Source of the DNA: a virus | Lineage: Duplodnaviria > Heunggongvirae > Uroviricota > Caudoviricetes | IMG/VR virus record: IMGVR_UViG_3300042275_000481 | Location: 38,172 to 102,171 of that record | Direction: 5' to 3' (one strand) | DNA length: 64,000 bases | Part shown: piece by piece, positions 16,744 through 62,461 of the stretch | Layout of the letters: every line of letters begins with the position of its first letter | How positions within the stretch are numbered: position 1 is the stretch's first letter | Program-made: the position numbers and the translations under genes | Notes under the pieces: generated by a model | Database searches by the model: none | What the model saw: only the letters and a program-made list of their open reading frames with translations | What the model was told of the DNA's origin: nothing

Positions 16744-18177
16744 TTACATCTCCTGCACAATTTCTAGTTCTTCGATTTTGAATTGGTCGAATACTGCACT
16801 ATCTGTCATTGCAGTGAAAATAATATTGACTTGTTTACCTTGTTCAGGTAGATAATCACTGTAAATAAACGTTCTAAATGGTCTATTATCGATATATAAA
16901 ATACGATTATATTCATCATATTTTGTGACTGTTCCAGTATAACTGAATTTTAGTTTCTCAAAACCTTTACCATACGGTGCAAGGTTATAATGAGCATCAA
17001 ATATCTCAGTTGTATAATAATCCTCAAAAATGAATACATTCTCATCGACGTCATGTGCATTTTCTGCATAGTCTTTTTCGAAGTGTTCCTTCAATAATTG
17101 TAAATCTTTTTCTGGATTTCCAACACGAATTCCAATTGCTCCGTCATGTCCGCCACCATCAACTGTTGTATCTGGATTAGCTTTCAAGAAGCGGTTAAGG
17201 CCTTCATAAAGCGAATAACCAGGAACTGAACGACATGAAAATGATAGTGTTCCGTCTTTTTCTGTACCTACAAAAGCAGGTTTTTGTTCCTTATCTGAAA
17301 TCCTATTTGCTACTAAACCAATAAGACCACCGATTGGATAGTCATATTTATCAGCATCGATAACCATGAAACCGATATTTTCTTCTGGATTAGCCACATG
17401 TTCTTTAAAGATGTCACGAGTTTTCTCTTGACGTTCTCTGTTAACTTCACGATAGCCATTGATGTAGGTTCCATATTCGTTTGAACCAATGATATCTGAG
17501 ACGATATCTTCTGTTTCTCCATTTACACGTCCACTTGCATTGATTGTTGGTCCAACATAATATCCAAAAGTATCTTCTGTGATATAAGTATCTTTGTCAT
17601 CCATAATCCAACGTCCAACACCAAATCCAGCTAAGAATTTAAGTGTTCGTCCAGCCCAAAGTTTACGTTCTTTATAATAATTGATATTATCGAGAACATA
17701 TTTAACTAATAGTCGATTTTCACCAACTAATGGCATAACATCTGAAACAGTTGCAACAGCCGCAAATAATGCAGCATCTTTTAAAACATATTCATCTTCT
17801 TTTTTGCTTGGGTCTAATAATGCATTCCCAAGTTTAAGTGCAACAAATGCACCACAGATATGTTCATGTCTGTCATTTGTTACATGTGGATTGACAAGAA
17901 TATCAGCATTTGGAAGATTTTCCATATCTGGAATATGATGGTCTGTTACAATCATCACAAGCCCATTGCTCTTTCCATAATCAATAACGTTGTTTGCAGA
18001 TATTCCATTATCAACTGTGATAATAACTTCTGCGCCCATTTCTAGTGCTCTGTCAACGTGTTTTTCCTTAATTCCATAACCATCGTTAAGACGGTCTGGA
18101 ATGATGTAGTCACATTGTTTCACACCATAATGCTCTAAGATAATCTTCATAGCAGTTGTTGCCATTATACCGTCAGC
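16744..18177 (-). CDS. RecJ-like DHH-family ssDNA exonuclease, exon 2 of 2
   Basis: DHH motif IVTDHHIP and DHHA1 motif GGGH. The frame continues upstream of the annotated Met as ADGI, completing the RecJ motif I GDYD|ADG when joined to exon 1. Confidence 0.7.
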   Translation of the reverse strand, partial: ADGIMATTAMKIILEHYGVKQCDYIIPDRLNDGYGIKEKHVDRALEMGAEVIITVDNGISANNVIDYGKSNGLVMIVTDHHIPDMENLPNADILVNPHVTNDRHEHICGAFVALKLGNALLDPSKKEDEYVLKDAALFAAVATVSDVMPLVGENRLLVKYVLDNINYYKERKLWAGRTLKFLAGFGVGRWIMDDKDTYITEDTFGYYVGPTINASGRVNGETEDIVSDIIGSNEYGTYINGYREVNRERQEKTRDIFKEHVANPEENIGFMVIDADKYDYPIGGLIGLVANRISDKEQKPAFVGTEKDGTLSFSCRSVPGYSLYEGLNRFLKANPDTTVDGGGHDGAIGIRVGNPEKDLQLLKEHFEKDYAENAHDVDENVFIFEDYYTTEIFDAHYNLAPYGKGFEKLKFSYTGTVTKYDEYNRILYIDNRPFRTFIYSDYLPEQGKQVNIIFTAMTDSAVFDQFKIEELEIVQEM

Positions 18178-19363
18178 CTTAATTGGACTATATCTTCTAT
18201 AAATTGTTTAATTTATAGCAGTGCACTTCGAGTGGTATCGATCTCCACCCTACTCCGCTACATTCATCACGGATAGTCTCTTGACCTTCCTATTTCTAGG
18301 CTTGGCACAGGATAATTAGGTAACTTCCCCTGTTAGCATAACTTTTAACTATCATTTCCTATAGTTCCAAAAGTAAGTTATACACCTCGCTGATCCACGA
18401 GTTCACACTGTTTTACTACGACACTGTTATCGGTATAATATTTTCTAGGTTTTATTTCTAAATCTGGTGATATTAATAAAATATTAAATTCTTTTAATGA
18501 ATTATAATCTTTTTTATAAAATGTATCTAATATGATTTCTATATTATTTTCTTCACTGTAAGGTATTCTTAAAAGAGTTATCGAATTTTTTCTACAATAA
18601 TCATTTTTCATCTTATCATGAATTAATGCTGTTTTGTATCCTCTTTTTGAAGAATTAAAATGTTGTTCGCCATCAAATTCTATTAATTGATTTAGTATAT
18701 CTATATAATCAAATGGCATTTTCCTTTTATCTTTACAATCATCAAATCTATATTCACTATCTAAATAAAGATTTTTATCTTGTAGATATTTTGCAATATT
18801 TGATGAACCACTTCCTGGAATAGCACCAACTCTTTTAAGGTTTGCACATTCAGGACATCTTTTTCCTTGTTGAAAATTATTTGGAGTAGTATAAAAATAT
18901 GTTTCACAAATCTTATGCTTAACCCTTACTCTCATTTTGTTATTCCCAGAGTAAACAGGAGCATCTAATAATTCATAATCTGGATCATTAAATATACCTT
19001 CTAAATAATTTTCTTTCACGAGATATTGCCCTCTGCCTATTTTTTTCCGATTTTCATACTTTACTCTTCTTAAATTTTTTGTCTCGCAAGAACAGCGAAT
19101 CTTTCCTTCTTGAAATAATTTTCAGGAAGTGTTTATAACTTCACCACAGTCATGTTCTATCATAATAATAGATTTATTATTTTTATAATTCTTGAAATCA
19201 TATTTTTTACTTAAATTAAACCTAGAATCTAATTTTTTTATTTTCTTTTCTAATTCATTTCTTGTTAATCTCTTTGGCATAATTTTTCTCCTCCATATTA
19301 TAAATTACATAATATATTGTTTAGATTATGAATCAGAAAAGTTATAAAAATTTAATTTCTTTT
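18178..19363 (-). mobile_element. group I intron (minus strand) in the RecJ-like gene, carrying a decayed homing endonuclease gene
   Basis: Exon 1 ends with U of GAT (GDYD). The intron ends in G (..aag) before gct-gac-ggt (ADG). R element (revcomp of ggatagtctcttgacc, 18271-18286) and S element (revcomp of gactatatc, 18186-18194) are present in the correct order for a minus-strand transcript. Confidence 0.6.
18378..19280 (-). pseudogene. frameshifted intron-encoded homing endonuclease (zinc-ribbon + Vsr/DUF559-like nuclease family)
   Basis: ATG at 19278-19280 with a GGAGG RBS. The N-terminal module (IEHDCGEVI) reads in one frame, then shifts (~19120) into the 18378-19019 ORF. That ORF starts with GTG and contains CPECA and FDGEQHF...LLRIPY. 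Confidence 0.5.
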
Positions 19364-21863: not shown

Positions 21864-22412
21864 TTATTCAGGAATTACTAATATACCATAATTTCCATCA
21901 TTACGTTTGTAAATAGTCGAAATTAAGGCATTATTATCTTTATCTTTGAAAATAAAGAATGAGTGTCCAAGAAGTTCCATTTCTTCAATTGCTTGTTCAC
22001 GAGTTATAGTTTCTAACGGAATAAACTTTTCCCTTGCAATCTTTCCTGTTTCTTCTTGTTCTTCATTATAAATTGCTTCTAATTCTTCTTGTAAATCAAG
22101 AATATTAAAAGCTAATTTATTTCCATTTCTATGCTTCATTCGCATAGTTTTATATTTTCTAATTTGTCCTTCTAATTGATTAACAACTTCAATAACAAGA
22201 GCATAAAAATCTGTACCAGAATGTGACGCTCGGATGTTGCCTGGAATTGCTATTTCTAATTTTAGTTGATGTCCTTCTTTCTTGAGCGTTGCTCTTCCAT
22301 CTACACTATCAACAAACCTCTTTAACTTTTCTACCTTCTCAATAACATAAGTTTTCATTGCATCGGTAAATTCAATTTTTTTCTTGTCTGAGTAGAATTC
22401 CATAATTTTCAT
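21864..22412 (-). CDS. hpf: ribosome hibernation promoting factor (long HPF/YfiA family)
   Basis: N-terminal RaiA/HPF fold region. C-terminal dimerisation domain ...EEMELLGHSFFIFKDKDNNALISTIYKRNDGNYGILVIPE is characteristic of long-form HPF of Firmicutes. Confidence 0.75.
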   Translation of the reverse strand: MKIMEFYSDKKKIEFTDAMKTYVIEKVEKLKRFVDSVDGRATLKKEGHQLKLEIAIPGNIRASHSGTDFYALVIEVVNQLEGQIRKYKTMRMKHRNGNKLAFNILDLQEELEAIYNEEQEETGKIAREKFIPLETITREQAIEEMELLGHSFFIFKDKDNNALISTIYKRNDGNYGILVIPE

Positions 22413-22985: not shown

Positions 22986-23555
22986 TCATGCTTTTCTCTG
23001 TAATATTTTTGCAACATAACGATCGGATATTTTAAATTTCTTTCCGATTTCTATCATAGATATTCCATCTGAGAATAATTTGAATATTTCAATAATATTT
23101 TCTTTTTTTAACTTTGAATTCTGATGGTCTTCACCTTTTAAAGTGTTTATTAATCCATTTTTATAAGCATGAATAACATTTTTACTAATTGACATTATTT
23201 CTAAATTTCCAATTTTATTATTTAGTTTATTTCCATCTTTATGATTTACGATAAAATTTTTTGGAATTTCACCTATAAAATTTTCTGCAACTAATCTATT
23301 TATTCTAAAGGATTTATTCTTATTATTTTTATGAAGTTTTATAGTATAATATCCTCTTTCTAAAATTCTTTTTTTTATATAGCCATATTGATTTTTAACC
23401 CTGCCAAAATTTGAAATATAATAGTTATTATATCCTTTAATATTCTTTCAAATTTCGTCTAAGATAGGTTTTTGATCTTCAACGATAGGTTTATTAAAAT
23501 TTGCTTTAAGTAAACCGGCTTTAACAGCATGTTTTATATTTTCAGATTGGGTAAC
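22986..23555 (-). pseudogene. decayed HNH homing endonuclease (second NUMOD4-HNH module plus NUMOD1/HTH tail) interrupted by in-frame TGA codons
   Basis: Reading-through translation gives ...NNLE*VTQSENIKHAVKAGLL...DEI*KNIKGYNNYYISNFGRVKN...VNHKDGNKLNNKIGNLEIMSISKNVIHAYKNGLIN... The second TGA falls at the conserved Trp of the NUMOD4 WK-I-GY motif. The 3' part corresponds to ORF 22986-23195. Confidence 0.45.
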
Positions 23556-23870
23556 TCATTCTAAATTGTTCATATGGTTATTGAGTTTGTTTCCATCTTT
23601 ATGATTAACAAAAGATTTATTACTAGGATTATCAATAAACATTATAGCTACTAATCTATGGACCATGAATTGTCTTCTTTCCATATTTTTCTGTAAAGAT
23701 ACTCTATAGTATCCATTTTCAGATAATCCTAGTTTTTTCAATTGTCCCTTATATTTTTTGTTATTAATAACCCTATCTAATGATCTTATATTTCCTAGAT
23801 TTGATACTTGATAGTAACTCTCGTATCCAATTATATCTTTCCATATTTCTGTCATATTACCTACCTCCAA
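23556..23870 (-). CDS. HNH homing endonuclease (NUMOD4 + HNH_3 motifs), free-standing
   Basis: EIWKDIIGYESYYQVSNLGNIRSL (NUMOD4) and VHRLVAIMFIDNP...VNHKDGNKLNNHMNNLE (HNH). Confidence 0.65.
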   Translation of the reverse strand: MEVGNMTEIWKDIIGYESYYQVSNLGNIRSLDRVINNKKYKGQLKKLGLSENGYYRVSLQKNMERRQFMVHRLVAIMFIDNPSNKSFVNHKDGNKLNNHMNNLE

Positions 23871-23933
23871 TTTTTAACTATAATTAATTGTTATAAAAAA
23901 TTAAAAGTAAAATATATGATGTATGCTATAGGG

Positions 23934-24465
23934 CTACAATCTATCAGAAGCACAACTACCAGTAGCACAATCTGGATCTTCATCTGCTTCTTCTTTATAG
24001 TATTCATCAAGTTCTAAATATTTTGTTAGTAATTCGTGGGAAAGGTCATCTAATCCTTCAATAGCTTCTTCATATTCTTCTTTAGTAATAGTTTGATATG
24101 GAGCTTGTGCATATTGATGGTCAGTCAATGGTAAGAATGAAACCGCTGTGAAAGATTTCCAGTTTTCATATAACCATTCTGTTGCTGCTTCCCACTCATC
24201 ATTTTGAACAGATACTGTAATCGATGTATTTTGGTCAGTATAGTGTTCTTGGAATCTCTTATATCTGTCTAGTTGTTCAATAACTGAGACGTCAAATTTA
24301 GTTCTCTTTGCTTCTGATTTAACTGGGAAATATATTACAGCTGTTGTATCAGGTCTTGTAATATCATCTTCAATTCTCCAGTTAAGCTTACTAATCACTT
24401 TGAACATTGGGTTTGTTTTATCAATGCGAATAGTTCTATAATAATATGGACTGTGGCTCATATGT
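23934..24465 (-). CDS. nrdJ: class II (NrdJ-like) ribonucleotide reductase, exon 3 of 3 (C-terminal part)
   Basis: Continues the conserved ...SS-G-x-E-P...Y-x-RR region as (V)HMSHSPYYYRTIRI. C-terminal redox cysteine pair DCATGSCASDRL. Confidence 0.65.
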
Positions 24466-25938
24466 CGTTTTATTCTATCAAGGTCGTTAATCTTGATACG
24501 TTCTCTTATGAACTGCTTATATTTTCATATAAGACTAGACTATATCACGATCCTTCTAAGGATCCTTTCCATTTCGATTTAAGGGATTTTCACCCACCAC
24601 TTGGCCCTACTCCTGTTGACAAATTTATATTAGCGCTTGTCCTTGGGATAGTCGTTGCACATCTAATTTAATTTTAACTTTTCTTTTAAGGTTTCTTCTA
24701 TTTTTAATTTGATTTTTTTCTTAGAGAGACTAGATACATCAATCCTCAAGAGCTGCTCGCCTGCAAAGTTATTTCTAATATTATCCCTTTGTTTAATAAT
24801 TTCAAGTTCCTTTGCTAGACTATCTCTATTAAATGATTCTTTATGAAATCTTCCATCAATTTCTATAAATTTAATATCATCATGTTCTATTTTAAAATCA
24901 AATTCAAATTTATCATTACCTATTTGTTGATAGTAGTTTTGTTGAAATATTATGTTATTTTTTTCTAAAAATAAACGAGTTATTTTTTCTCCATAAGGTT
25001 CTCTTTCACAGGTACATTGTAAATTTTGGTTTATCATATTTACAGTAGTATACCATTCTCTTGGTTTATCATATTTACAATTAATATGTTTTACCTTTAT
25101 TTTAGAATGAGCATTTTTGTAGTTAGATGAATCTAATAATTCAAAACCTTTCTGTTCTAAGAGTTTTTTAACATCTTCAATAGATCTTGTCCTAGATTTA
25201 ACTCGTTTTTCCTGGCCACAAATAGGACACCCAAAGCCGCGAGTTAAATTATTTGGAGAAACTTTTCACTCATGACCACAAATATTATGTCTATGTAATA
25301 TCTTAGTATCTTTATTAATATATTCTTCTAAAGCAATATATTCATTATTATAAATATCATATAGATTCTTTTTATACTCTTGGTTCGTAAGCTTAAATGT
25401 ACCATTGCAAATAGGACATCCATGTTTACCAGATAAAATAGAATTAGGCGTTGTTTTTCACTCATGACCACAAATATTATGTCTAATAGTGATAGCTGTA
25501 CGAGTTCCTTTATATTCTTCTAATGCAGTATATTCATTCTCATAAATATGATGGAGTTTAAATCTAAAAGCTCTATCGTCAAGTATTCTTCCACTACAAA
25601 TAGGACATCGCTGATTTGATGATAAAAATTTTACCAGTGGCATTTTTCATGTGAAACCACAATCTAGATGCTTAAATTCCATCAGTGATTTATTATTAGT
25701 ATAATCTGATTCATTAGAAATTAAAATATATTTTCCATGCCCTTTTTCAAAAACCTCATTTTTTATATCAACAAATTGTTTTCGTTTCATACAATACACT
25801 CTCCCTCTTATTAAAGAATAATATATTGTTTAGTTAAAATTAAATTATTTTGCTCAGGATTACCATATCTTTTGACTTAGGCTTCCCTGAATTAAAAAAG
25901 TTTTCTTATACTATTGCTAGTATAAGGCGCAATATTTT
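24466..25938 (-). mobile_element. group I intron (RNR intron 2) carrying a heavily decayed homing endonuclease gene
   Basis: Proposed 5' splice site after U of ..gctggcgt. The 3' end ...aataaaacg (omega G) is homologous to the end of the ORF-less Clp intron. R (24645-24660) and S (24548-24556) elements present. The 5' portion (aattcagggaagcc...atcctgagc, 25850-25905) resembles the 5' portion of intron 3. Confidence 0.55.
24663..25790 (-). pseudogene. multiply frameshifted homing endonuclease (zinc-ribbon + Vsr/DUF559-like family)
   Basis: ATG at 25788-25790 with an AGGGAG RBS. Fragments are MKRKQFVDIKNEVFEKGHGKYILISNE..., then ...NQRCPICSGR... (25458-25643), then the nuclease-domain remnant IEIDGRFHKES...LLRIDV (24663-25037). 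All are in different frames. Confidence 0.5.
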
Positions 25939-26798
25939 ACGCCAGCGCTACTTGAATTAGCAACTAATCCAAGTGTTCCTGAAGGTTTAACAGCACTTAC
26001 ATTAAGTGAATGAGATAAACCAAGTTCATCAGCATACTCATCTGCAGACCTTCTAATTACTCCGTAAAGCCAATCCATAAATTTATTTTCTTCTTCAATA
26101 TTCATACCTGTTGCTTCAATCATATCCATCCATGAAGATGGTGAAACACCGAGTAATCTATCTTCTTCTTGTGTTTTGTCCCACTCTTCTAATTCAAGCG
26201 TGTTCATGGTGACACGATAAGCAGAACGAGTTAAAACACGAAGGTCTTTTTCAAGTAAATCATAGTTGATAGTTTTATCTTCATTTAGGTAAAATACAAC
26301 ATTGAATGTAACTAAGTTACATGTCTGTTTTGAGCGTAACAAAATCTCGGCACAAGGATTGAGTCCTCTAGCTTGAGGGTGTCTCTTCTTGATTTCACTT
26401 TCATTCATAAATCCTGGTTCACCGAATGACTTGATATTCTCCATCCAAGCAGTTACTTCTTCCTTAGTTGGTTCATATCCTTCTTCGACAACCATTGTAT
26501 TATTTGAAATCCAATAGTGAGAAATTTTTCTATCACTAAAATCCGTGAAGTTTGTTTTGGCTTTTGCCATTTCATCATCTGTTCTTGAGAATAGTGCAAT
26601 CATAGCACTTCTTCTTACACCACCAACAACAATCGCTTCAGCAATTGAGTTTGCAATGTGCATCATATGAATTGGTCTTAGTTTTCCATCAATTGGCGCT
26701 TTTGTAAGAATGTTTCCGTGACTATCTAAATAATCTCCAGTAACAACTTCATGCATCTTTTTGATAGATTGAATGAATGGTTCGGCACCACTTGCATA
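25939..26798 (-). CDS. nrdJ: class II (NrdJ-like) ribonucleotide reductase, exon 2 of 3
   Basis: Contains GGVRRSA, the active-site loop NPCAEI (N-x-C-x-E) and the KPSGTLGLVANSSSAG motif. The exon ends inside the Val codon ahead of intron 2. Confidence 0.7.
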
Positions 26799-27987
26799 CA
26801 TATGTTAGCTCATAGTTTCTTATGAGATCAGACTATATCTTCAACCCTAGAACTATCTAGGATTGCCTCGCACTTCGAACTATAAGTTCTACTCTACTCA
26901 CTTCTTTACTTAGATTATGTTCTAAGCTATGTTTTCGATAGTCGTTGCACGTTCAAATATATCATCTAGAATTTCATGTATCTGACTAATTTGATTATAT
27001 CTTATTCTTATTAAATTGATATTATTTTCTTTTGCTATTTCATTTTTTCTGAAGTCATTTTCTTTCAAAATTTTGAATGATTCTTCCCCACCCCAATTAT
27101 CTTGAGGTATAAAATGTTGTATTCCGTCAAACTCAACTATTAAATTTTTTTCTTTAATCCAAAAATCCAATCTTAAATTTCCAAATAATTTATGCGTTTT
27201 ATTATATTTATATTTAATATTTTTAGAATTCAAATAATCTATAATAATTCGTTCACCATTTGAAGCTTGACAAAATGGACATCTTTGACCTTGTTGAAAG
27301 TCATTAGGTCTCATAACAAAAGTATTTTTGCATTTTTTATGATAATGTTTTATTTTTGTATATGAATTAATATATTCCTCATTTACAGTATATTGATTAG
27401 AACCTAATTTCTTAACTAAATTTTTATACTGTTGATGTGTTTTTCTAATTCCGCCATTGCAAACCGGGCATCTTCTTCCAGCTGAGATGAATTTATTGGC
27501 TGTTGCATAGTAATCATTTCCACATTTTTTATGTGTAAATTTCAACTTACTGTGATTATTCTCATAATTACCTTCAACTATATACTCATCTTGTACTAGA
27601 TCATATATTTGTTTTTGTATATCTTCTAGTGTGAATGCATGAAATTTTTTTCTTTTTTCATTAGCACATAACGGACAACGTCTTCCTTGTTTGAATTTAT
27701 CAGGTGTTACTGAATAAATATTACCGCAAGCAAGATGTTCTACTTTTAATTTAGTTTTCGAAGTAGTATAAGTTTCTAACCATTTATACTCATTCGCATC
27801 ATCAAATTTTTTATTAATATCATTTAAGAATTTTTTATGTTTAGTCATTTTAATACAGTCCCTTCTATAATAATATATAAGCTTCGCTCAGGATTGTCTC
27901 CATCATTACATGGTAAGAGTTTCCCTGAATTCACGAGGTTGCTATAATATATTGTTATATTAAGGTGGCTATGCTTTTGGGGCGTTA
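26799..27987 (-). mobile_element. group I intron (RNR intron 1) carrying an intact homing endonuclease gene
   Basis: Exon 1 ends ...TFGG with U before the in-intron TAA. The intron ends in G just before tat-gca-agt (YASGAEP). R (26927-26940) and S (26830-26838) elements present. Confidence 0.6.
26922..27848 (-). CDS. intron-encoded homing endonuclease: four tandem zinc-ribbon (CxxC...CPxC) modules plus a C-terminal Vsr/DUF559-like PD-(D/E)xK nuclease domain
   Basis: Repeats of H..CGN.Y...P..F..G.RCP.C. C-terminal IVEFDGIQHF...D...K...INLIRIRY. The 3' end reads through the R element of the intron core. Confidence 0.6.
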   Translation of the reverse strand: MTKHKKFLNDINKKFDDANEYKWLETYTTSKTKLKVEHLACGNIYSVTPDKFKQGRRCPLCANEKRKKFHAFTLEDIQKQIYDLVQDEYIVEGNYENNHSKLKFTHKKCGNDYYATANKFISAGRRCPVCNGGIRKTHQQYKNLVKKLGSNQYTVNEEYINSYTKIKHYHKKCKNTFVMRPNDFQQGQRCPFCQASNGERIIIDYLNSKNIKYKYNKTHKLFGNLRLDFWIKEKNLIVEFDGIQHFIPQDNWGGEESFKILKENDFRKNEIAKENNINLIRIRYNQISQIHEILDDIFERATTIENIA

Positions 27988-28986
27988 ACCACCGAAGGTT
28001 TTGAGTGGCTCTCCAGCTGGTCGGATGTTATTAAACACCATTCTAATATTCTTATAATCATGGTCAATTTCATAACTCATGTATTTTAAGAATTCAGTTA
28101 CAGCTTTACCCCAACCATCTCTGCTGTCTCCAACAATAATTGAAATAGTTCCATCAAGTTTTAGAACCTGAGTTTTGTCTTTTCTCATTGTCTTTGGAAG
28201 TGGGTTGTAAGGCACAACTTGTAATTTTACATCGCTTCTAAATCTTGGAAGTTTTTCTGCAACATCCCAAGTAATTCTGTATCCAACTCCAGCACCAACA
28301 GATAATAGATATAAAATATCATAGAATGAGTCTAATGTGTCTGGTTCAATAAATGAGCAGTTGAATAAACTTAAAGGATAACGTTCTGCAGCACTTGATC
28401 CACCTGTGAACATTGCACGTCCACTAAGGAAAGCTCTAAGATTAAACTGCATGTCAAATAATTGCTCAGCTTCTCTTTTAAGAAACTGCATAACTTTTTC
28501 TTCACGTTCACGAGTATCCATATTGATATTATGGTCTGTGGCACGTAAAATTGTTTCTTTAAATGTTTCTCGTCTACCTAATTCAACTACATCTCGACTA
28601 TATGTTCTCAAATAAGTAAATTTACTTACAGGGCCCATATGTTTTGGGTAGCTGTCATAGTTCACAAGGAAACTCGGTGCTAAGTACTCAGAGCTATAAA
28701 CAACATCTTTCAACGATTCTCTTCGTTTCGCTCTTGCATTTCTTCTTAATATATAATGCTCAACAGCTTCAGGATATTCCCTGATTGCATGTTGCACTTT
28801 GTTTTGAATCTCTTCTATTCCAATACCATCATAAACAACTACAGATTTAGCCATCTCTTGAATCTTTGAGTATAGTTCCTCTGCTCTTTCTTCTCCATAA
28901 GTCTCTCTGAACGCTTTGTAGATTGCCTGTTCGATTTTGGAGACATCGAATTTTTGCAATTCACCAGTTCTTTTACGAATATACAT
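27988..28986 (-). CDS. nrdJ: class II (NrdJ-like) ribonucleotide reductase, exon 1 of 3 (ATP-cone N-terminus)
   Basis: N-terminal ATP-cone (RKRTGELQKFDVSKIEQAI). Exon ends ...KTFGG. Confidence 0.7.
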
Positions 28987-29273
28987 GACCCATCATCCTT
29001 TCCCTCAATTTCACAAAAAACGGGATATAAGGCTAATATGCTTAAGTGTATAACAACCTTATTTCTTCTAGACATGAAGTATAATTTTTTAGTAAGAAAT
29101 TTTTATTGTTATTCATAAACATATCATCTTTTGTTTTTCAGAAATTGGACAGTAACCACTGTCAGAAGTATTTCTTAATTTATTGTTGTTAGGATTTTTC
29201 GTTTTTAAATTATATACTTTTTGTAAAAAATTTAATCAAAAAAAGAAGGATTCGAAAATCCTTCTTATATTAG

Positions 29274-30772: not shown

Positions 30773-31369
30773 TTATTTATCAGATGGTTTCTTGATTTCG
30801 TCAATAATTCCATATTTTAATGCATCTTCTGCAAACATCCAACTGTCACGTTGTGTATCTTTTTTAAGTTGAGTAACTGTCTTGTTACATGATTTTGCAA
30901 TCATCTTAAGCAATTTCTCATTTAATTGTTTTGTAAAGTCAAGAGAAACTTCCATATCTTGGATATTTCCTTGAGTTCCACTAGATACTTGATGAAGCAT
31001 TACAGTTGCATTTGGTAGCGCAAAACGCTTGTCACCTTGAGACAGAATAGCTGCGCCCATAGATGCAGCAAGACCTTTAACACAAGTATAAACTGGTGCT
31101 TCAATATCTTTCATAACATCAATAATAGCCAATCCGTCAAGAACGGATCCTCCCGGACTGTTGATGTATAATTGAATAGGTTGTTTGCTAATTTTATTCA
31201 AATGTAACAATGTTTGTGTAATATAGCTAGCTTGTCTTTCATCAACAACACCTTCTAAATGGACAACACGGTCGTCAATTTGTGCACGTTGAATATCATA
31301 TTTAGGTTCTGAGTAATAAGTCCCTGAACTAGTCATAGGCTTATTAATATTTTTCGGATCAAAATTCAT
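30773..31369 (-). CDS. clpP: ClpP-family serine protease (S14; ClpP/NfeD-like)
   Basis: YINSPGGSV, Ser nucleophile in GLAASMGA, His in MLHQVSSG. 198 aa. Confidence 0.8.
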   Translation of the reverse strand: MNFDPKNINKPMTSSGTYYSEPKYDIQRAQIDDRVVHLEGVVDERQASYITQTLLHLNKISKQPIQLYINSPGGSVLDGLAIIDVMKDIEAPVYTCVKGLAASMGAAILSQGDKRFALPNATVMLHQVSSGTQGNIQDMEVSLDFTKQLNEKLLKMIAKSCNKTVTQLKKDTQRDSWMFAEDALKYGIIDEIKKPSDK

Positions 31370-31433
31370 ATTTTCCTCCTTGATTTTTAGAATTGAGGGG
31401 AAGATTTCTCTTCCCCAATTTAATATTTTTTAT

Positions 31434-32543
31434 TTATGGATTTATAATAATTCCGGATCCATCAGTAATAACTTGTGGCAACTCACCATTCCATGTATTT
31501 AAATACTCGATATATTGAATATAATCAAAGATTACCTTTAATTCTTCTGGAGTACTTCCTGAAGTATCAACTGTATATGTTGTAACCTCTGTAACTGGAT
31601 CTGTGGTCGATGTAACTGGCATACCTAATGTTCTGGCAACATCAACGACCTTAGCTGACAATGCAGCTGCTTCAGCCTGAGCGATTGCAAGAATAGCGTT
31701 TGCTTCACCTTTAGCTTCTTCTAGAGCCGATTCTGCTTCAAGAATAGTTGTTGCTAATTGTTGTTCAGCCTGAATGATGGCAATTTGTTTTTCAGTTTCA
31801 GCTTTTAATCTTTGTTGATCTGCAATCATCTTAGCTTCAACAGCTGCTTCAAAAGCATCTGAAAATGCAAAATCTGTAAGATAAATCGCAACAATTTCAA
31901 CAGGCATTCCTCTACCATTAATTTCCTCAACAATTAAGGTTTCTATAGAAACAGATAATGCGGATCTTTGTGAAATTAAATCCTCAGCGGTATATTGTGA
32001 TAAAGACGATTTAGTTCTTTCCATAACAAGCGAACCTAATCTATCTCTAACATTTTGAACATCTCCACCATATTTTTCATAGATTGTTTGAGCTTGTTCT
32101 CTCTTAATTCTCCACTGAACTGTAAGCATTGCGTCTACAGGCTGGGAATCGTTAGAATAGAATGATATTCCCATATCTTCAAGATTGTCATATCTGATTT
32201 CTTGAACTTTTAATGTATATTTGTGATATTTTTCTAATGGGCTTTTAACCTTTAAACCAGGTTCATATACAACTCCTTGAATATCTCCTAATTGAGTAAC
32301 AACCACTACTTCGGTTGCATCAATAGTTTGAAACATTCCAAATAATACAATTAATGCGCCAAGTGGAGCAAGTAACACAAGTTTACGGAATTTCCATCCG
32401 AACTTATATTGTTCTTCTGTATATTTTTCAACAGTTCCATCATATTTTACTTTTTGTTTCTCAACAATATATGAATGTTCTCCTAGGCCAAGACCAATGA
32501 ATAAACCAATAACTAAAATAAATGCAAAAATAATTAAAAACAT
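31434..32543 (-). CDS. SPFH/band-7 (stomatin/prohibitin/HflKC-like) membrane protein
   Basis: N-terminal TM helix. SPFH core domain. Long Ala/Glu/Gln coiled-coil (AEQQLATTILEAESALEEAKGEANAILAIAQAEAAAL). Confidence 0.75.
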   Translation of the reverse strand: MFLIIFAFILVIGLFIGLGLGEHSYIVEKQKVKYDGTVEKYTEEQYKFGWKFRKLVLLAPLGALIVLFGMFQTIDATEVVVVTQLGDIQGVVYEPGLKVKSPLEKYHKYTLKVQEIRYDNLEDMGISFYSNDSQPVDAMLTVQWRIKREQAQTIYEKYGGDVQNVRDRLGSLVMERTKSSLSQYTAEDLISQRSALSVSIETLIVEEINGRGMPVEIVAIYLTDFAFSDAFEAAVEAKMIADQQRLKAETEKQIAIIQAEQQLATTILEAESALEEAKGEANAILAIAQAEAAALSAKVVDVARTLGMPVTSTTDPVTEVTTYTVDTSGSTPEELKVIFDYIQYIEYLNTWNGELPQVITDGSGIIINP

Positions 32544-32612
32544 AATTTGTACCTCCCAATTTTCTTAAAATTTTTTACTCAAAGTTTAAAAGAAGGGAAT
32601 CCGAAGATTCCC

Positions 32613-33216
32613 TTATACTGATACTACTTCTTTTTCTTTTTGCTTGGACTCGATACGATCAATAGCCACAAGCATTTGTTTTCTTACAGCGCGCTTCAAT
32701 CCACGTGCACCATAAGTTTCGATATCAGCTGTCTTAATGATATCATCGATATCAGATTTAATGAATTTAACATCTTTTTCCATTTCCATGTACTCTTGAT
32801 ATTCTTTCTTGTATCTGTCGATTAGTGTTTCAGCGATATCTTTTTCAAGACCGTTGAACACAATGATTTCATCTAAACGGTTGATGAATTCTGGACGGAA
32901 ATGCTTTTCAACATTTTCTCTAATTTCGCTTGACTCAGTTTTATGAGTTACGAATCCAGAACTTCTAGGTTTAGCAAAGTCTTTACCATAACCTAAGTTC
33001 GTTGTGAAAATAATAATCGCATTTCTAAATGAAACACGATTTTTATGGTTATCAGTCATTTCACCTGTATCTAAGATATTCAATAATGTATCGAATACTT
33101 TTGGATGAGCTTTTTCAATTTCATCAAATAGAACGACTGAGTTTGGATACTGTTTGATTTTTGCAACTAAACCTGATTCATCATCATGGCCTATATCTTT
33201 TGTGTTACGATAGTTC
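32613..33216 (-). CDS. ClpC/ClpA-like double-AAA+ ATPase, exon 3 of 3
   Basis: GHDDESGLVAKIKQYPNSVVLFDEIEKAHPKVFDTLLNILDTGEMTD (D2 Walker B/sensor), RPEFINRLDEIIVF (sensor 2), GARGLKRAV. The 5' boundary is uncertain (33191-33216). Confidence 0.65.
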
Positions 33217-33491
33217 GCTAAACTATCTCTTTATATTTCTATAAAGAACTGACTATATCTTCACCCGATAAACGGGGTACTGCATTTCGAGTTCGCTTGA
33301 ACCCTACTCCCATAAGGGATAGTCGATGAACCTTCATCTCATTGAGATGTTTGGCTGCGGATTGCCCAATCTCTTGCCTTTTTACCATCTCTCCGACGTT
33401 ACTCTTCGATTAACAGGTAGCTAAGAGCTCTAAGGGGTTTCCCGCAATTAACAGTATTTTCTTTTGTATATCACTATACAATGGGGCGTAT
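33217..33491 (-). mobile_element. ORF-less group I intron (Clp intron B)
   Basis: R (revcomp of gggatagtcgatgaacc, 33316-33332) and S (33251-33259) elements. Conserved gcggattgcccaatct and gctctaaggggtttcccgcaatta blocks. Proposed 5' splice site after U of tgg-att. The 3' splice site is ambiguous: ..tagcg or ..gatata. Confidence 0.5.
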
Positions 33492-33628
33492 AATCCACCC
33501 AGGGGCACTACCAGTAATTTTTGTTACATCCATTTCAGTACCATATTCACCCATATTTAATTTGATTAAGTTTCGTTCAGCACCACAGAATTGCTTTGCA
33601 ACAATTTTACAAGTTTCGGTTTTACCGA
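33492..33628 (-). CDS. ClpC/ClpA-like ATPase, exon 2 of 3 (46-aa micro-exon)
   Basis: Encodes VGKTETCKIVAKQFCGAERNLIKLNMGEYGTEMDVTKITGSAPGWI. This is the remainder of the D2 Walker A (GPTG|VGKTE) through the ...G-A-P-P-G-Y-like motif. Confidence 0.6.
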
Positions 33629-33938
33629 CCGTTTATATTCCATCGAAATCGTTAATTTCAATGCGTTCTCTTATGAACTGCTTATACTTTCATATAAGAC
33701 TAGACTATATCATCACCTTTTTCAGGTGGTTTACATTTCGACTCACTTGAGTCTACTCCTTACGGATAGTCGTTGAACTTTTCTCTTATTAAGAGACTTA
33801 GCTGCTGATTGCCCAATCTACACACTTTTCAAGCCTTGGCTTTTCCTCACGGATCGCAGTGGCAGTGTAGCTCTAAGGGGTTTCCAGCAATTAGTAAACT
33901 TTGCTTATGTAAATTTCTTTACATAGGGGCTAAATTTA
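33629..33938 (-). mobile_element. ORF-less group I intron (Clp intron A)
   Basis: Exon 1 ends GPTG (ggt, U) followed immediately by TAA. The intron ends ..ataaacg (G) before gtcggtaaaacc. R (33754-33768) and S (33693-33701) elements, plus the gctgctgattgcccaatct and gctctaaggggtttccagcaatt blocks. Confidence 0.65.
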
Positions 33939-35408
33939 ACCCGTAGGACCTGCAAATACCATTGATGTCAATGGTTTCTCTGGATCGACTAATCCTCTTT
34001 CAATGTATCTTAGGTTCTCAATAACACGGTTCAATGGTCTTTCTTGACCTAATAGAACACGTTTCAACTCTTTTGCAGTTGCTTCTGTTTTGTTGTCAGC
34101 AATATTGATATCATATTTGACTTTAATCGCTGTGCGAACATCATCTGTGAAAACAATTTCACCGTCTTCATTGAAAACAGTTGAACTGGCAAATGCAAGT
34201 TCCAACATATTAATTGCTTTTGCTGGATTTGCTTGGTCAAGGGTGTATTTTTCAGAATAGTCTAAGACTTTTCTTACTAAATCGTCCTCAGCCTTCTTAC
34301 CAAAATATTCTTCGATATCAGGTTGTACACCTTTAAGAATTTGATAAGTTTGTTGTTTTGTAGGCTCACTAATGTTTACCTTATGGAAACGTCTTTCTAA
34401 TGCTTTGTCTTTGCTGATGTGTTTTTGATATTCATCATCAGTTGTAGTCCAAATCATTTGAATTTCACCACGAGTGATATATGGTTTAAGAATATTACCA
34501 CCACTTGCAGCTCCTTCTGCGTCTCCTAATTTCACCATCATATGTGCTTCATCAATGAACAGAATTACTTCTGGATTTTCTTTGACAAGTTTAATGATGT
34601 TCATAAGTTTTTCTTCAAAATCACCACGATATCTAGTTCCAGCAACTAATGCACCTGGATCTAATTGGTATACAATTTTGTTTCTGAACTTTTTAATAAC
34701 ATTTTTATTATTAATACGATTTACGAATTCATATACTGCAACAGTCTTACCTGTACCAGCAGGTCCAACGAGAATCGCATTTCTAATTGATTTTCCTGAC
34801 AAAGCCATTTGAATTTGATTAACAGCATTGTCTGCACCGATTACAACTGGTTTCGCTTGTTTCACATATCTGTTAAGATTTGTTAACTCACGGATTTTTT
34901 CCAATGCATCGATTTCTTGTTTAGTTGCAACAATATTAAATGCTTCAACAATTTTCTCAGACATTTGGTCAACTTTTTGAGTTGAACCGCCGAGAACAAA
35001 TTCAAGAATACTTCTAAGTTTATAACTTGGGTCTGAAAATAACACTTTAATAAGGTCTTCAACTTGCATTTGTCTGCGTTGTGCAAGAGCATCTCTTTTA
35101 AGTTGATTTCTTACAGCATTACCTTCTTCATGCCAAGTAACTTCAAAACGTTCTCCGCCTACATCCAATCCAGGATATAGTTCCAAGAATACCTTTTCAA
35201 AATCTTCTCCCTTAACTTCGTATTCTTGTAAGATATTCGTTAGAGTTTCATACGTCTCAGCAAATCTTTCAGTATCTTTATTCTTCTTCAAGAAGATTGT
35301 TGTACCTAAGAATAGATGAGGTGTACCAACCCAATTTTGATAGTTCTTAATTGCAATTTGTCCCGCTTTTTGCGAAATCATTTCGACTTCTTGTGATAGT
35401 GCCTTCAT
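33939..35408 (-). CDS. ClpC/ClpA-like ATPase, exon 1 of 3 (Clp-N repeat, D1 AAA+, start of D2)
   Basis: D1 Walker A GPAGTGKT. Walker B ILFIDEAH. ALERRF. Ends at ...MVFAGPTG (first half of the D2 P-loop). Confidence 0.75.
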
Positions 35409-35420
35409 TCTTTTCCTCCT

Positions 35421-35849
35421 TTAGAATCCAAAATCATCATCATCATCGTCTTCATGAGGATTGACTTGAACGGTATTTTGTTTGTTTTCATATTCTTTAA
35501 GATCTGTAAATGACATTTCCTTAACAGTTGCCATAATTTCATCGATTTTGTCGAGAATTTGTTCATCTGTAAGTGCTTCTGGTCTTTCACCAGTCATTTG
35601 TTCCATTATATCTGCAAAATCTGGATCTGATAAAGCTTCTAGATCCGTCATCGCACCAACATATCGTGATATTACCATAAAGTTAGCTCTGAAGTCAGCG
35701 CTTTCTTTATACTCAATATTTCTTTTTGCTTCTTTTACAGTAGCTTCTATTTTTTCAATAACTTCTAATTTTGCTTTCTCAACGGGTCCAAGACTCGCTT
35801 CTTCTTCTAGACCATCATCATCTAAGAAGAAATCATCAAAATCAGCCAT
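35421..35849 (-). CDS. acidic protein (poly-Asp C-terminus)
   Basis: 142-aa ORF ending HEDDDDDDFGF. Lies between the VWA gene and the Clp ATPase gene. Confidence 0.45.
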   Translation of the reverse strand: MADFDDFFLDDDGLEEEASLGPVEKAKLEVIEKIEATVKEAKRNIEYKESADFRANFMVISRYVGAMTDLEALSDPDFADIMEQMTGERPEALTDEQILDKIDEIMATVKEMSFTDLKEYENKQNTVQVNPHEDDDDDDFGF

Positions 35850-35907
35850 ATTAGTTCCTCCCTGTTTCTATAATTTTGTTGGGAACATAGAAAAATAAAG
35901 ACGGATC

Positions 35908-37383
35908 CTAGAAGAATCCGTCTTGTTGTTTTTTCATTTTAACCCAATCAGCGTCTTTTTTCAACGCTTTAACTTCACCATATGGTTCTTTCAGTGATAA
36001 ATGTTTTTCATCTGCAAGAACGATCCAAAGATTTCTTAGTGTTCTTGGTTTTGGAATTTCAGAATCACCAAAGCCATCAGTAAAGTATACCATTAGCGCA
36101 TTTTTATATGCACCAGTTTCATTGATATGATTGATTACAGGAATGAAAGAAGTTCCTCCACGACCTGTAACTTTTGTATTTACATCACGAGGATATTTTG
36201 CATCATAAATTCTTCCAATTTCAGCATCACATTCGATGATAGTAACTTTTGTATCATAATCTTTAACGATATTGAAAATTTCGTTGATTACATACTCAAT
36301 ATCACTATTTGACATAGAACCTGATGTGTCAATTGCAACAACAAGTTGTATATGTCTCTTTGGAAGTTTACCAGATAAGTCAGCACGATATGGTTGACGT
36401 CTGTTTAGACGTGTTTTAGTTCTTCTGTATGGAACAGGAACTGTACCCATATACTTTTTAAGAATCTGTTTCCAACTAATTTCTGGTTTTCTAAGAAGAT
36501 GTTTAATCTGTTCGATTACACCTGCAGGCATAAGTCCACGAGATTTTTCATCCATCTTATTATAAACATCTGCAATTAAACCTTTAACTCTGTCTTTCGC
36601 ATCTTCACTATCAACTTTTTCCCATTGATGTGGTGCTTGACCATTTTGATTATTTTGAGTTGCAGGTGCATTAGGATCTGGTTCACCTTCTCCTTGACCT
36701 TGTCCTGGCATAGCAAACTTGCTAGGTTTACTTTTCTTATTACTATCACCATCTTGTGGCTTAGGACCAAAGTTCTTCAAGAACTTATAATAATAGTCAA
36801 TCGAACTGTTTTCTTTCGGTGTTCTATTACTTTCTTGATTCATTTTTGCGGTTGTGTAAGCGTCAGGTGGAAGACGTAATGTCTTCGATCTGTCGTTTTT
36901 ATCTAATCTTATATCTTGTTGAACCATTGATGAAACAGATGCACTTGAAGCTTTTTCAAGGTTCACATGTTGTTCTGGATCATTTGCACCATTTAACTCA
37001 CCAAATACTGATGGATGATTATAAACTAATCTCAAAATCTCAGAAATAACCAATGCTGTAAATTCAGCATATGGATATTTAGCTAAGAATAATGGATTGA
37101 AATGCAATTCAAGTGGTTCTTTACTTACATCAATATCAAGTGGGCCTCGAATATTGAAGTTAACTTTTGTTGTCATGTTAACTAGAACTGAGCCCCAGAA
37201 AACATCGTGTGCCATGATTAAGTGAATTTTTTCAAATTCAATTACTTGCTCAAAAGCCTCTCTAAGAGGAGGGAGGATCTTTTCATCGACCTTCCCTTCA
37301 TTTATCAAAGCAGAAGCCTCAGCTTGATCTACAAGTTCACGGCAGATATTATATACTTCTAAAATATTAGTCTTTCCTGCCAT
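35908..37383 (-). CDS. von Willebrand factor A (VWA) domain protein, partner of the MoxR ATPase (DUF2201/ViaA/CoxE-like)
   Basis: MIDAS motif in VVAIDTSGSMSNSD. Further VWA elements (TDG..D). Long N-terminal region with a Gln/Pro/Gly-rich linker. Immediately downstream of, and tightly spaced (10 bp) with, the MoxR gene. Confidence 0.7.
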   Translation of the reverse strand: MAGKTNILEVYNICRELVDQAEASALINEGKVDEKILPPLREAFEQVIEFEKIHLIMAHDVFWGSVLVNMTTKVNFNIRGPLDIDVSKEPLELHFNPLFLAKYPYAEFTALVISEILRLVYNHPSVFGELNGANDPEQHVNLEKASSASVSSMVQQDIRLDKNDRSKTLRLPPDAYTTAKMNQESNRTPKENSSIDYYYKFLKNFGPKPQDGDSNKKSKPSKFAMPGQGQGEGEPDPNAPATQNNQNGQAPHQWEKVDSEDAKDRVKGLIADVYNKMDEKSRGLMPAGVIEQIKHLLRKPEISWKQILKKYMGTVPVPYRRTKTRLNRRQPYRADLSGKLPKRHIQLVVAIDTSGSMSNSDIEYVINEIFNIVKDYDTKVTIIECDAEIGRIYDAKYPRDVNTKVTGRGGTSFIPVINHINETGAYKNALMVYFTDGFGDSEIPKPRTLRNLWIVLADEKHLSLKEPYGEVKALKKDADWVKMKKQQDGFF

Positions 37384-37393
37384 AATGGCCTCC

Positions 37394-38851
37394 TTATTCT
37401 TCTTTCATTAAGTTTTTAAGCGTACTGTCGAATTCAGAAAGTTGCAATAAGACCTCACGTGCAAAGCATTTAGAAATCTTAGAGAATACATTCTTTCCAT
37501 CTTTTGCAATAACTTTCTCTACATTTGAAAGACCTTTTGCGAAGGTGATTCTTGTAGAATCGTCAAGCATTTGAACGAATTCTGTGATTTGATCCTTATA
37601 GTTATTGTATTCTTTTGCAATCTTCAAATCAGATGATTTTTTCTTATTTTCAAAGTCAACAATTGTTTCAGCGATGTAGTAAATAACTGTGTCAGCAGTA
37701 ATCTTTCTACGAAGTGCACCTTGTTTGTTGAATTTAACTTTAAGTTCATTACTGATTGTTGCGGTTTTACCATTGATAAGTTCTTCTGGTTTAATAAGTG
37801 TGCTTGTATCTTTTAAGTTACGGATAAATGCACGACCTGCTGTTTGACCAACTTTACCAATGATCATTCTTTGCATATCGCCATCTTCGTCTGATCTATC
37901 TTGACGACTTAGAAGAGGGGTTTTAGCAAATACTTGGAAACTTTCATAAATATATGCAACAATTTCCCAAGAACGTGGTGATGGATGTTGCTCATCAGTA
38001 TCCTTATGAGAGTTGTCTTTTGTCATAAATTGACTTTCATCAACAGCAATTGCGTTGATAACGTCTGTATTAATTCCTTTATCAAGAGCATAATCTACCC
38101 AGTCGCTTAACTTAGCATCAACAACGATTTTAAGGAAGCGGTCTTTTTGAGCGTCATCCATTTCGTTAGTTGCATAAGTTGAGTTTTGAGATGATGGATT
38201 GACTGCGCCTACAATCGTAACCCACCAAGGTAAGTCATAACCATTGATATTTTTGTTAAGAACGATGTTCATTAATTCTTTCATTGTTTGTGGTTCTGTA
38301 CGGTTAAGCTCATCAATAAATAGTAAGAAAGGTTTAATTTCTCCACTTTCGATTAATGCAATTTTAAGTTCTGCTGGTAATTCTTCACCGAATTTAAATT
38401 CGTTGATTTCTCCATCAACAAGACGTTCCATTTGAGAACGTGTTGCTAATACTTTTGCTTTCTTAGTTTTAGGGTCTGTATAAACCATACCTTCATCAGT
38501 AAGTTTAAGAGCTCCACCTAAGAAACCTTCTTCTTTTGCAATTCTGTAATATTCTTTTTCAAGTTTCATAATATTACTTGTTACATAATAAGGAACGAAA
38601 CGAACTTCTGTTCCTCCATCTTTAGTTGGGCTTGCAAATGGTAAACCAGTTACTTCCCCTTCTTTTAGAGATCCACCTTCAACTACGTTACTGAACCCTC
38701 CAAGTTCTTTTGCAGCTTGGTGAATAATTTCTGTTTTACCGATACCATGAGGACCTGATAAAAGCATTGTAATACCTTTACCTCTTGGTGTAATAAGATT
38801 TGCTAAATATGCGCGCTTAACTAAGCGCTTTGACACTTCAATTGTTGCCAT
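37394..38851 (-). CDS. MoxR-family AAA+ ATPase (AAA_5)
   Basis: Walker A LSGPHGIGKTE. Walker B LLFIDELNR. Sensor-1/Arg-finger region TIVGAVNPSSQNSTYATNEMDDAQKDRF matches the MoxR ..ATQNP...LP.A.LDRF signature. Confidence 0.75.
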   Translation of the reverse strand: MATIEVSKRLVKRAYLANLITPRGKGITMLLSGPHGIGKTEIIHQAAKELGGFSNVVEGGSLKEGEVTGLPFASPTKDGGTEVRFVPYYVTSNIMKLEKEYYRIAKEEGFLGGALKLTDEGMVYTDPKTKKAKVLATRSQMERLVDGEINEFKFGEELPAELKIALIESGEIKPFLLFIDELNRTEPQTMKELMNIVLNKNINGYDLPWWVTIVGAVNPSSQNSTYATNEMDDAQKDRFLKIVVDAKLSDWVDYALDKGINTDVINAIAVDESQFMTKDNSHKDTDEQHPSPRSWEIVAYIYESFQVFAKTPLLSRQDRSDEDGDMQRMIIGKVGQTAGRAFIRNLKDTSTLIKPEELINGKTATISNELKVKFNKQGALRRKITADTVIYYIAETIVDFENKKKSSDLKIAKEYNNYKDQITEFVQMLDDSTRITFAKGLSNVEKVIAKDGKNVFSKISKCFAREVLLQLSEFDSTLKNLMKEE

Positions 38852-62455: not shown

Positions 62456-62461
62456 TTATAA

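Follow-up and report, generated by a model that had tools for sequence, protein, structure and literature searches.

A Clp ATPase gene that meets a stop codon inside the Walker A motif of its second AAA+ module raises the question of whether the protein has been lost or whether its pieces are rejoined. Such a gene lies at positions 32613 to 35408 of a 64,000-nucleotide (nt) stretch of the virus record IMGVR_UViG_3300042275_000481; this whole stretch is called the window here, and coordinates are positions within it unless they carry the label of another contig. We consider it about 90% probable that the locus is one gene for a class I Clp/Hsp100 unfoldase of 728 amino acids (aa), interrupted by two group I introns of subgroup IA that contain no open reading frame (ORF) of their own.

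The Clp gene and its splice junctions

The gene is on the minus strand. Exon 1 (33939..35408) has 490 codons and covers the N-terminal region, the first AAA+ module (D1), its lid and the start of the second module (D2) as far as ...MVFAGPTG; it is supported by the ORF list, the sequence and the Pfam matches AAA and AAA_lid_9, and it aligns to residues 1-490 of an intron-less ortholog, L002, described below. A strong Shine-Dalgarno (SD) sequence, AAGGAGG, is present just 5' of the ATG at 35408. The exon ends ATG GTA TTT GCA GGT CCT ACG GGT and is followed directly by TAA (33938-33936), the first bases of intron 1 (33630..33938, 309 nt; 5' end UAAAUUUAGCCCC, 3' end AUAUAAACG). Exon 2 is a micro-exon (33497..33629) of 133 nt, that is 44 codons plus 1 nt, which encodes VGKTETCKIVAKQFCGAERNLIKLNMGEYGTEMDVTKITGSAPG and supplies the T of a Tyr codon. 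Intron 2 (33197..33496, 300 nt; 5' end GGAUUAUACGCCCC, 3' end CACAAAAG) separates it from exon 3 (33196..32616, stop codon 32615-32613), which opens with the AT completing the Tyr codon and continues from IGHDDESG through the Walker B motif (VVLFDEIEKAH) to the C-terminus. Both introns are ORF-less and of IA type.

Junctions were set by the rules for group I introns, namely an exon-final U paired to a G of the internal guide sequence and an intron-final G. The predicted ligated RNAs read ...ACGGGU^GUCGGU... and ...CUGGGU^AUAUAGG... (^ marks the splice point), within the joined sequences GCAGGTCCTACGGGT^GTCGGTAAAACC and GTGCCCCTGGGT^ATATAGGCCATG, respectively. The spliced coding sequence is in frame and open over 2187 nt. 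Junction 1 falls between codons in the D2 Walker A motif, GPTG^VGKTE. Junction 2 (T^AT; phase 1) comes after the first base of the Tyr codon in GSAPG-Y-IGHDDESG, the equivalent of the GYVG pore loop in D2 of ClpB and ClpA.

The initial annotation of this locus, made from the sequence alone, had proposed three exons split by two ORF-less group I introns, with exon 1 ending ...MVFAGPTG before a TAA and the first junction rebuilding GPTGVGKTE. This architecture is upheld, the rebuilt motif being gapless against both L002 and ClpB, and the second junction, which had been named as a check, proved to be in frame. The finer boundaries required revision: the micro-exon, placed at 33492-33628 with 46 aa, moves to 33629-33497, intron 2 lengthens from 275 to 300 nt (33496-33197), and the joined product shortens from 737 to 728 aa.

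Both intervening sequences have the features of group I ribozymes

Each intervening sequence matched the Rfam model for the group I catalytic intron, RF00028 (curated gathering threshold 50 bits), over its full length (1-253): intron 1 at 33948-33681 (minus strand; 98.5 bits, E 2.9e-24) and intron 2 at 33506-33229 (minus strand; 85.4 bits, E 2.4e-20). The internal guide sequence of intron 1, AGCCCC (33926..33931, minus strand), pairs with the exon end ACGGGU to form P1, with U33939 opposite a G; this pairing was read from the sequence and appears in both the Rfam alignment and the minimum free energy (MFE) fold. The guide of intron 2, GCCCC (33483..33487, minus strand), pairs with the exon end CUGGGU (U33497·G), and UUAUA beside it can pair with the UAUAG opening exon 3, a candidate P10. 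At the 3' ends, the omega-G residues are G33630 (before GUCGGU) and G33197 (before AUAUAGG), the positions that give collinearity with the intron-less ortholog.

The P7 helix is the seat of the guanosine-binding site in group I introns. Motif scanning and the MFE folds place its 5' strand, GACUA, at 33767..33771 (minus strand) in intron 1, paired with UAGUC at 33703-33707, and at 33320..33324 (minus strand) in intron 2, paired with UAGUC at 33251-33255. Unconstrained MFE folding of either intron with six exon bases recovered P1, P2, P4-P6, P7, P7.1, P7.2, P8, P9 and a P9.1 hairpin, with P1 formed by exon GGGU and GCCC in both. The MFE z-scores were -4.1 (intron 1) and -3.3 (intron 2), and 0/100 shuffles folded as well. 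An RNAalifold analysis of nine introns, the three ORF-less introns of the window (the third is described below) and six related introns from IMG/VR, gave 49 consensus pairs, 32 of them with double-sided compensatory changes (in P3, P4-P6, P7.1, P7.2, P8 and P9), and a covariation term of -15.5 kcal/mol. The GACUA/UAGUC strands of P7 are invariant in 9/9 of the aligned introns, so that covariation is not possible there. P7.1 and P7.2 appear as two hairpins (alignment columns 148-161 and 165-185), both covarying, that follow GACUA and precede the 3' strand of P3. Helices at this place, between P7 and the 3' strand of P3, mark subgroup IA (Michel and Westhof), the class of the T4, SPO1 and Twort introns, and by them both Clp introns are assigned to that subgroup. 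By the Rfam matches, the U·G pair, the terminal G and the covarying helices, both intervening sequences are group I introns. Neither has room for a homing endonuclease; the longest internal ORF has 49 aa (33239-33388) and is not conserved, an insertion in the relative L208 falling within the same stretch.

Membership of this ribozyme family suggests guanosine-dependent self-splicing. After transcription, each intron would fold into the ribozyme core; free guanosine would attack the phosphate following the exon-terminal U, itself paired with a G of the guide sequence, and the freed exon end would then attack after the intron-terminal G to ligate the exons. Ligation would restore the D2 Walker A motif (GPTG^VGKTE) at the first junction and the Tyr codon of the D2 pore loop (T^AT) at the second.

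The intron family is widespread. After that of L208, the closest relative of intron 2 (L173:5439-5741, 76% identical) lies upstream of an ORF resembling RNA polymerase beta. The intron core at 33229-33335 shares 84% identity across 107 nt with the crAss-like phage cr118_1, where it is unannotated, and that at 33681-33713 has a 33-nt exact match in the Staphylococcus epidermidis phages Sazerac, Lacachita, Southeast and S-CoN_Ph27. The P4-P5 motif AATTGCNGGAAACCCCTTAGAGC is present in more than 118 IMG/VR contigs; among 118 IMG/VR loci with this motif, 0/118 encode a Clp homolog.

The spliced product is a predicted two-module Clp unfoldase

The 728-aa product matches Pfam AAA, AAA_lid_9 and AAA_2, the last spanning residues 478-645 across both junctions (E 4.7e-45). 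Its best matches in the PDB are ClpB, ClpC1 and ClpA (E 1e-88 to 1e-101), and the alignment is continuous through both junctions in Escherichia coli ClpB and ClpA; the alignment to Clp relatives that the initial annotation had called for thus gave a collinear protein, with a best E of about 1e-100. D1 carries GPAGTGKT and ILFIDEAH, and D2 carries GPTGVGKT, the GYIG pore loop and VVLFDEIEKAH. By these motifs the product is a predicted class I Clp/Hsp100 unfoldase with two AAA+ modules. Unfoldases coupled to ClpP (ClpA, ClpC, ClpE) differ from ClpB in having a docking tripeptide [LIV]-G-[FL] in D2 and in lacking a long M-domain. Here there is no M-domain-sized insertion between D1 and D2, and the protein aligns to ClpA as one stretch. 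Clp_N (PF02861) gave no match in the 728-aa product at E ≤ 0.001, and the first ~170 residues are specific to the phage Clp family. The loop aligned with the IGL loop of ClpA, the putative site of ClpP docking, is non-canonical, reading SGF in the window and QGV in L002.

Comparison with an uninterrupted ortholog and selection on exons and introns

The intron-less ortholog L002 (IMGVR_UViG_3300031601_000004; L002:5995-8217) encodes an uninterrupted protein of 740 aa, 70% identical to the Clp protein of the window, within the same gene order: a DUF2201 VWA protein, a small acidic protein, the Clp ATPase, an SPFH protein and ClpP. The alignment is gapless across both junctions (...AGPTGVGKTET... 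and ...GSAPGYIGSDDESG...). The P-loop site without an intron, in L002 or in the relative P0004, reads GGACCAACTGGTGTAGGTAAGACA. An exact look-up of the spliced 728-aa protein in a 15-billion-protein collection found no identical entry; there is therefore no intron-less allele of identical sequence on record.

The relative L208, a metagenomic contig, encodes a Clp protein with 88% aa identity to that of the window. Its gene has an ORF-less intron at each of the two positions, with nucleotide identities of 91% (intron 1) and 92% (intron 2) to those of the window. Between the two genes, the ratio of nonsynonymous to synonymous divergence (dN/dS) is 0.08 in exon 1, 0.25 in exon 2 and 0.11 in exon 3, at dS of 0.5-0.9; all three exons are under purifying selection. 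As L208 carries the same two introns, the exons have been under protein-level selection with the introns already present. The introns too are constrained, being more conserved than synonymous sites. Exon 2 has neither an in-frame start codon nor a ribosome-binding site of its own. The frame of exon 3 opens at 33203, 7 nt ahead of the junction, no SD precedes the exon, and its first in-frame start is a TTG at 33083, which is 113 nt inside the exon and past Walker B. Given the selection on all exons and the lack of start codons in the two downstream ones, a working protein requires splicing.

The retention of both ORF-less introns through dS of 0.5-0.9, with only 8-9% of their positions changed, exceeds neutral expectation and could be taken to mean that splicing regulates the timing or level of the Clp ATPase, the introns being domesticated rather than selfish. 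This is compatible with a spliced Clp gene, but we consider it improbable. Ribozyme function alone explains the conservation, because an intron that fails to splice would kill the gene, and 76 of the 103 clusters of the family (defined below) are intron-free, including the 83%-identical P0004, so that the introns are dispensable.

The pieces might instead be the decaying remains of a gene inactivated by two inserts from which nothing is spliced. Gene callers indeed return only truncated pieces: as the initial annotation had anticipated, the IMG annotation of the same contigs gives a 490-aa 'ClpA' fragment and a 156-aa AAA_2 fragment and misses the micro-exon. Decay would also fit a case for splicing that is built from sequence and not from RNA. 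It is very improbable, however, in view of three exons that remain in frame with no internal stops, dN/dS of 0.08-0.25 against a relative with the same two introns, an intact Walker A, pore loop and Walker B, and introns that keep every core helix and change less than synonymous sites. Least probable of all is that the pieces are translated separately and assemble non-covalently, D1 as one polypeptide and the parts of D2 as others: jumbo phages do have split genes for AAA+ proteins and RNA polymerase, and exon 1 by itself forms a full ORF, with a strong SD in front and a stop codon at its end, but exons 2 and 3 lack the starts they would require, two chains that divide the P-loop between GPTG and VGKT cannot bind nucleotide, and the inserts are complete ribozymes.

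We therefore return to a single gene with two introns, against which four points weigh. The argument for splicing comes from sequence and not from RNA, and the genome is known solely from metagenomic contigs. The P10 pairing is weak in intron 1. Finally, moving both splice sites of intron 1 by one base leaves the encoded protein unchanged, so the exact phosphodiester bonds there follow from the U/omega-G rule and not from protein alignment.

Interrupted and empty Clp sites among relatives

Searching with the exon 1 product against a 5.8-billion-cluster protein collection delimited a phage Clp family of 103 clusters at E ≤ 1e-60. The 76 intact members have about 720-750 aa. Thirteen of the 103 break off precisely at G[PS]TG of the D2 P-loop, followed by 0-14 residues of read-through, and range from 93% to ~40% identity to the window; others stop at GYVG, at RYRG in D1, at FRN or at VVLFD. 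The closest intact relative is P0004, at 83% identity, and a relative at 88% is occupied, so that occupied and empty sites are interleaved. The distribution is the sporadic one by which mobile introns are recognised, with occupied and empty sites among close relatives and an intron more similar than its host gene. None of the IMG/VR Clp loci retrieved with exon 1 (0/80) was interrupted. Two-piece tblastn matches of the spliced protein among GenBank phages were also considered as candidate introns, for example in 'Listeria phage LM 4-11-1' (OR846827); this is a bacterial-type ClpB whose additional residues form the M-domain, the two pieces lie in a single frame and there is no Rfam intron, and the candidate was rejected.

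Several relatives carry a larger intron at the same place. In L204 and L205 (64% and 71% identity) the intron at GPTG^ has the guide sequence and P5 extension of intron 1 and is 86-90% identical to it, but contains a 317-aa ORF in the P6 loop. The P-loop intron of L203 (48% identity) contains a 330-aa ORF. A second intron of L203 (L203:6967-7291) is ORF-less and follows the first base after GYVG, which puts it three codons downstream of the pore-loop site of the window; it shares its guide sequence with the P-loop intron of L203. At this GYVG site L211 carries an intron with an ORF (~4930 onward), and L210 has one in D1 after RYRG; Rfam gave no match in L210 or L211, whose introns are cut by the contig end or broken by the ORF, and these were recognised by reading core motifs. 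The pore-loop site of L203 and L211 is 9 nt downstream of that in the window (PG plus one base), and the exon context at both is GG(G/A)U^AU.

The intron ORFs of L203 and L204 are homologous to three ORFs of the window (62626-63621, 26922-27848 and 60408-61496), all of which match Pfam CapR and DUF4379, and two of the three DUF559 as well. The P-loop intron of these relatives is predicted to encode a homing endonuclease of ~320 aa in its P6 loop, with CapR-like zinc fingers and a Vsr/DUF559-like nuclease domain. The closest homolog of the L203 enzyme in the window, at 33% identity over 299 aa, is the 362-aa CapR/DUF4379-repeat protein at 60408-61496 (minus strand), immediately downstream of the DNA polymerase gene, which looks free-standing and not intron-encoded.

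We infer that the Clp introns of the window descend from mobile introns that lost their endonuclease. Between the window and L204, intron identity is 86-90% and exon identity 69%, the latter climbing to 0.80-0.88 just downstream of the P-loop site. The pattern is consistent with horizontal homing and co-conversion; the signal is suggestive at most, because the same stretch is the most conserved part of the protein.

Other introns of the window and a possible common origin

At least four introns are confirmed in the window and there are probably three more. At relaxed E-value, Rfam found no introns in the window beyond those already matched, and the ORF-containing and divergent ones were found by core-motif scanning.

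A divergent family B DNA polymerase gene (PF20286; 61559-63795, minus strand) is split by two group I introns, with junctions fixed against the intron-less ortholog L206. On the minus strand, the upstream exon ends at 63795 (...RNKKN) and is followed by a first intron of 1253 nt (63794-62542) with a 331-aa CapR/DUF4379/DUF559 endonuclease ORF at 62626-63621, a micro-exon of 66 nt (62541-62476; YAGLITGELGRLLDKPVLDIKG), an ORF-less second intron of 290 nt (62475-62186) and the last exon, starting at 62185 (LAIRK...). The third RF00028 match of the window, at 62540-62238, absorbs the micro-exon into P1-P2; the 11-nt micro-exon that its 5' boundary would imply was rejected on comparison with L206, which shows 66 nt.

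Clp intron 1 (33630-33938) and the ORF-less polymerase intron (62186-62475) are ~85% identical from P3 to the 3' end and share an identical P5 extension, whereas P1-P2 of Clp intron 1 is unrelated to that of the polymerase intron and resembles that of Clp intron 2. This mixture suggests intragenomic copying of, or recombination between, introns. Before each of the three ORF-less introns of the window, the exon ends in the tetranucleotide GGGU.

The ribonucleotide reductase large-subunit gene (23500-29000, minus strand) appears to be cut into several pieces by introns with endonuclease ORFs. Its pieces, on the minus strand, are an ATP-cone plus RNR_alpha part (27985-28986), a barrel part (25917-26801) and another at 23934-24461, and the 3' halves of group I introns (P7-P9) are readable at ~26800-26945 and 24470-24660. 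The ORFs of the region, also on the minus strand, comprise a CapR/DUF4379/DUF559 endonuclease (26922-27848), a degenerate copy of it (~24741-25790), a 124-aa ORF (24663-25037) and a NUMOD4/HNH_3 ORF (23556-23870). A further intron-like core (GAGACUAUCC…AAGAUAUAGUCC) lies within 18140-19020 (minus strand), directly upstream of a RecJ-like DHH/DHHA1 gene (16744-18165); Rfam gave no match to it. Beside this core is a 213-aa ORF (18378-19019), a homolog of the CapR-Vsr endonucleases in their nuclease half.

Clp genes of the family are interrupted at four or more sites: in D1 at RYRG^, in the Walker A motif of D2 at GPTG^, and in the pore loop at PG^Y and, three codons on, at GYVG^Y. Within single genomes, closely related ORF-less introns sharing one short guide may have colonised the GGGU sites of the DNA polymerase gene and of the P-loop and pore loop of Clp. 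The Clp gene of this jumbo-phage clade would then be a hitherto undescribed hot spot for group I introns, with related, guide-sharing introns having moved ectopically among GGGU sites, an idea that we hold as doubtful. The shared GGGU target could equally reflect the need of splicing for a guide match, and we rate ectopic spread low on that account. If the idea is true, these genomes would document, in nature, introns transposing to ectopic sites under no constraint but a guide match of 4-6 nt, in place of ordinary allelic homing; they could have travelled by reverse splicing or by illegitimate repair driven by an endonuclease.

The ClpP module and the genome

The ClpP-type peptidase gene (30773..31369, minus strand; Pfam CLP_protease, E 8e-51) lies two genes downstream of the Clp ATPase, and an SPFH/Band-7 membrane protein gene (31434..32543, minus strand; Pfam Band_7, E 1.8e-26) stands between them. 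Upstream, at 35421..38851 (minus strand), are genes for an acidic 142-aa protein, a DUF2201 VWA-like protein (35908-37383) and a MoxR-like AAA ATPase (37394-38851), assigned with Pfam and PHROGs. The order of this module (30773-38851) is kept in relatives down to 48% Clp identity, and ClpP is found in the same gene order in L002, L081, L203 and L208.

The window has a guanine-plus-cytosine content of ~31%, and almost all of its genes run in the same direction. It is found in JGI metagenomes, where the contig reaches 127 kb; the source sites include JGI samples 3300042273, 3300042277 and 3300042281 and Logan run SRR35183620. An RNA polymerase beta' subunit encoded in it shows 33% identity to its counterparts in the Bacillus phages PBS1/AR9 and in Staphylococcus jumbo phages, by which we place the genome as an uncultured jumbo phage, distantly related to AR9/PBS1. 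A megablast search of the Clp region against 50,697 GenBank phage records returned no close relative; its matches were short ones to the intron core alone, in some Staphylococcus phages and one crAss-like phage. Elsewhere in the window are a homolog of the ribosome hibernation-promoting factor (21864-22412, minus strand; Pfam Ribosomal_S30AE and Ribosom_S30AE_C) and a 998-aa ORF (5872-8868, minus strand) with no Pfam match and one weak PHROG match, to endonuclease VII, over residues 204-245. The latter ORF adjoins a virion structural or tape-measure-like protein (3659-5857).

Relation to known introns

Since T4 td, group I introns with or without homing endonucleases have been known to interrupt essential phage genes at conserved motifs, and group IA2 introns include those of T4 td, nrdB and nrdD/sunY and of the Bacillus phage SPO1 DNA polymerase gene. 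The Clp introns resemble these in being small group I introns of a conserved phage gene, at codons for functionally critical residues, with P7.1/P7.2, a 5' U·G pair and a terminal G, and in having both ORF-containing and ORF-less versions. They differ in their host, a Clp/Hsp100 ATPase gene in place of genes for nucleotide or DNA metabolism, and in being two introns 133 nt apart, both ORF-less. Staphylococcus phage Twort has three group I introns in orf142 and two in nrdE, whose splicing was shown experimentally; there, too, several related ORF-less introns sit in one phage gene with short exons between them, although the host gene and the lineage are other than here, in a jumbo phage encoding a multisubunit RNA polymerase, with splicing predicted from sequence. 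Inteins favour the P-loops of ATPases, usually rationalised by an invariant target serving as a safe homing site. The first Clp intron is likewise a selfish self-splicing element placed exactly in an ATPase Walker A motif, but it would be spliced at the RNA level and not at the protein level.

Among jumbo phages, the introns of AR9/PBS1 lie in virion RNA polymerase genes, and an intron endonuclease architecture of the CapR/DUF type has been described there (PMC12350094). The window belongs to a related lineage, and its intron ORFs and the Clp-intron ORFs of L203 and L204, or their homologs, match CapR, DUF4379 and DUF559; in contrast, no Clp ATPase host was reported in that work (PMC12350094), and the Clp introns of the window are without an endonuclease. 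In the 'Jug' jumbo gut phages, ~18.5 small group I introns per genome fragment many essential genes, and metatranscriptome reads confirmed splicing for about half of the predictions (Sci Adv 2026, PMC12880540). The intron hosts reported there are terL, nrdD and DNA polymerase, with CLP_protease named just as a common domain (PMC12880540). Gene callers see intron-split pieces as fragments in both cases, but the Jug phages are a different group, with Bacteroides hosts and genomes of 360-402 kb (PMC12880540).

In the published literature we found no description of a group I intron in a Clp/Hsp100 ATPase gene. The suggestion in the initial annotation that such introns are undescribed stands to that extent; the case is not unique, however, as by our family search the same site is interrupted in many metagenomic relatives. 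What is new is the host gene, the Clp/Hsp100 ATPase; the type of element is well known and there is no new mechanism.

Implications

In automated annotation this gene, like a dozen or more orthologous clusters, is broken up into 'ClpA fragments' and the micro-exon is lost, so that phage Clp systems are under-counted and mis-sized. Genes of protein quality control would join the known hosts of phage group I introns, which have so far been mainly genes of nucleotide and DNA metabolism. Within one gene, the family offers a compact natural series of an empty site, an endonuclease-bearing intron, an ORF-less intron and a site shifted by three codons, a series suited to the study of the homing cycle and of the arrival of introns at new sites.

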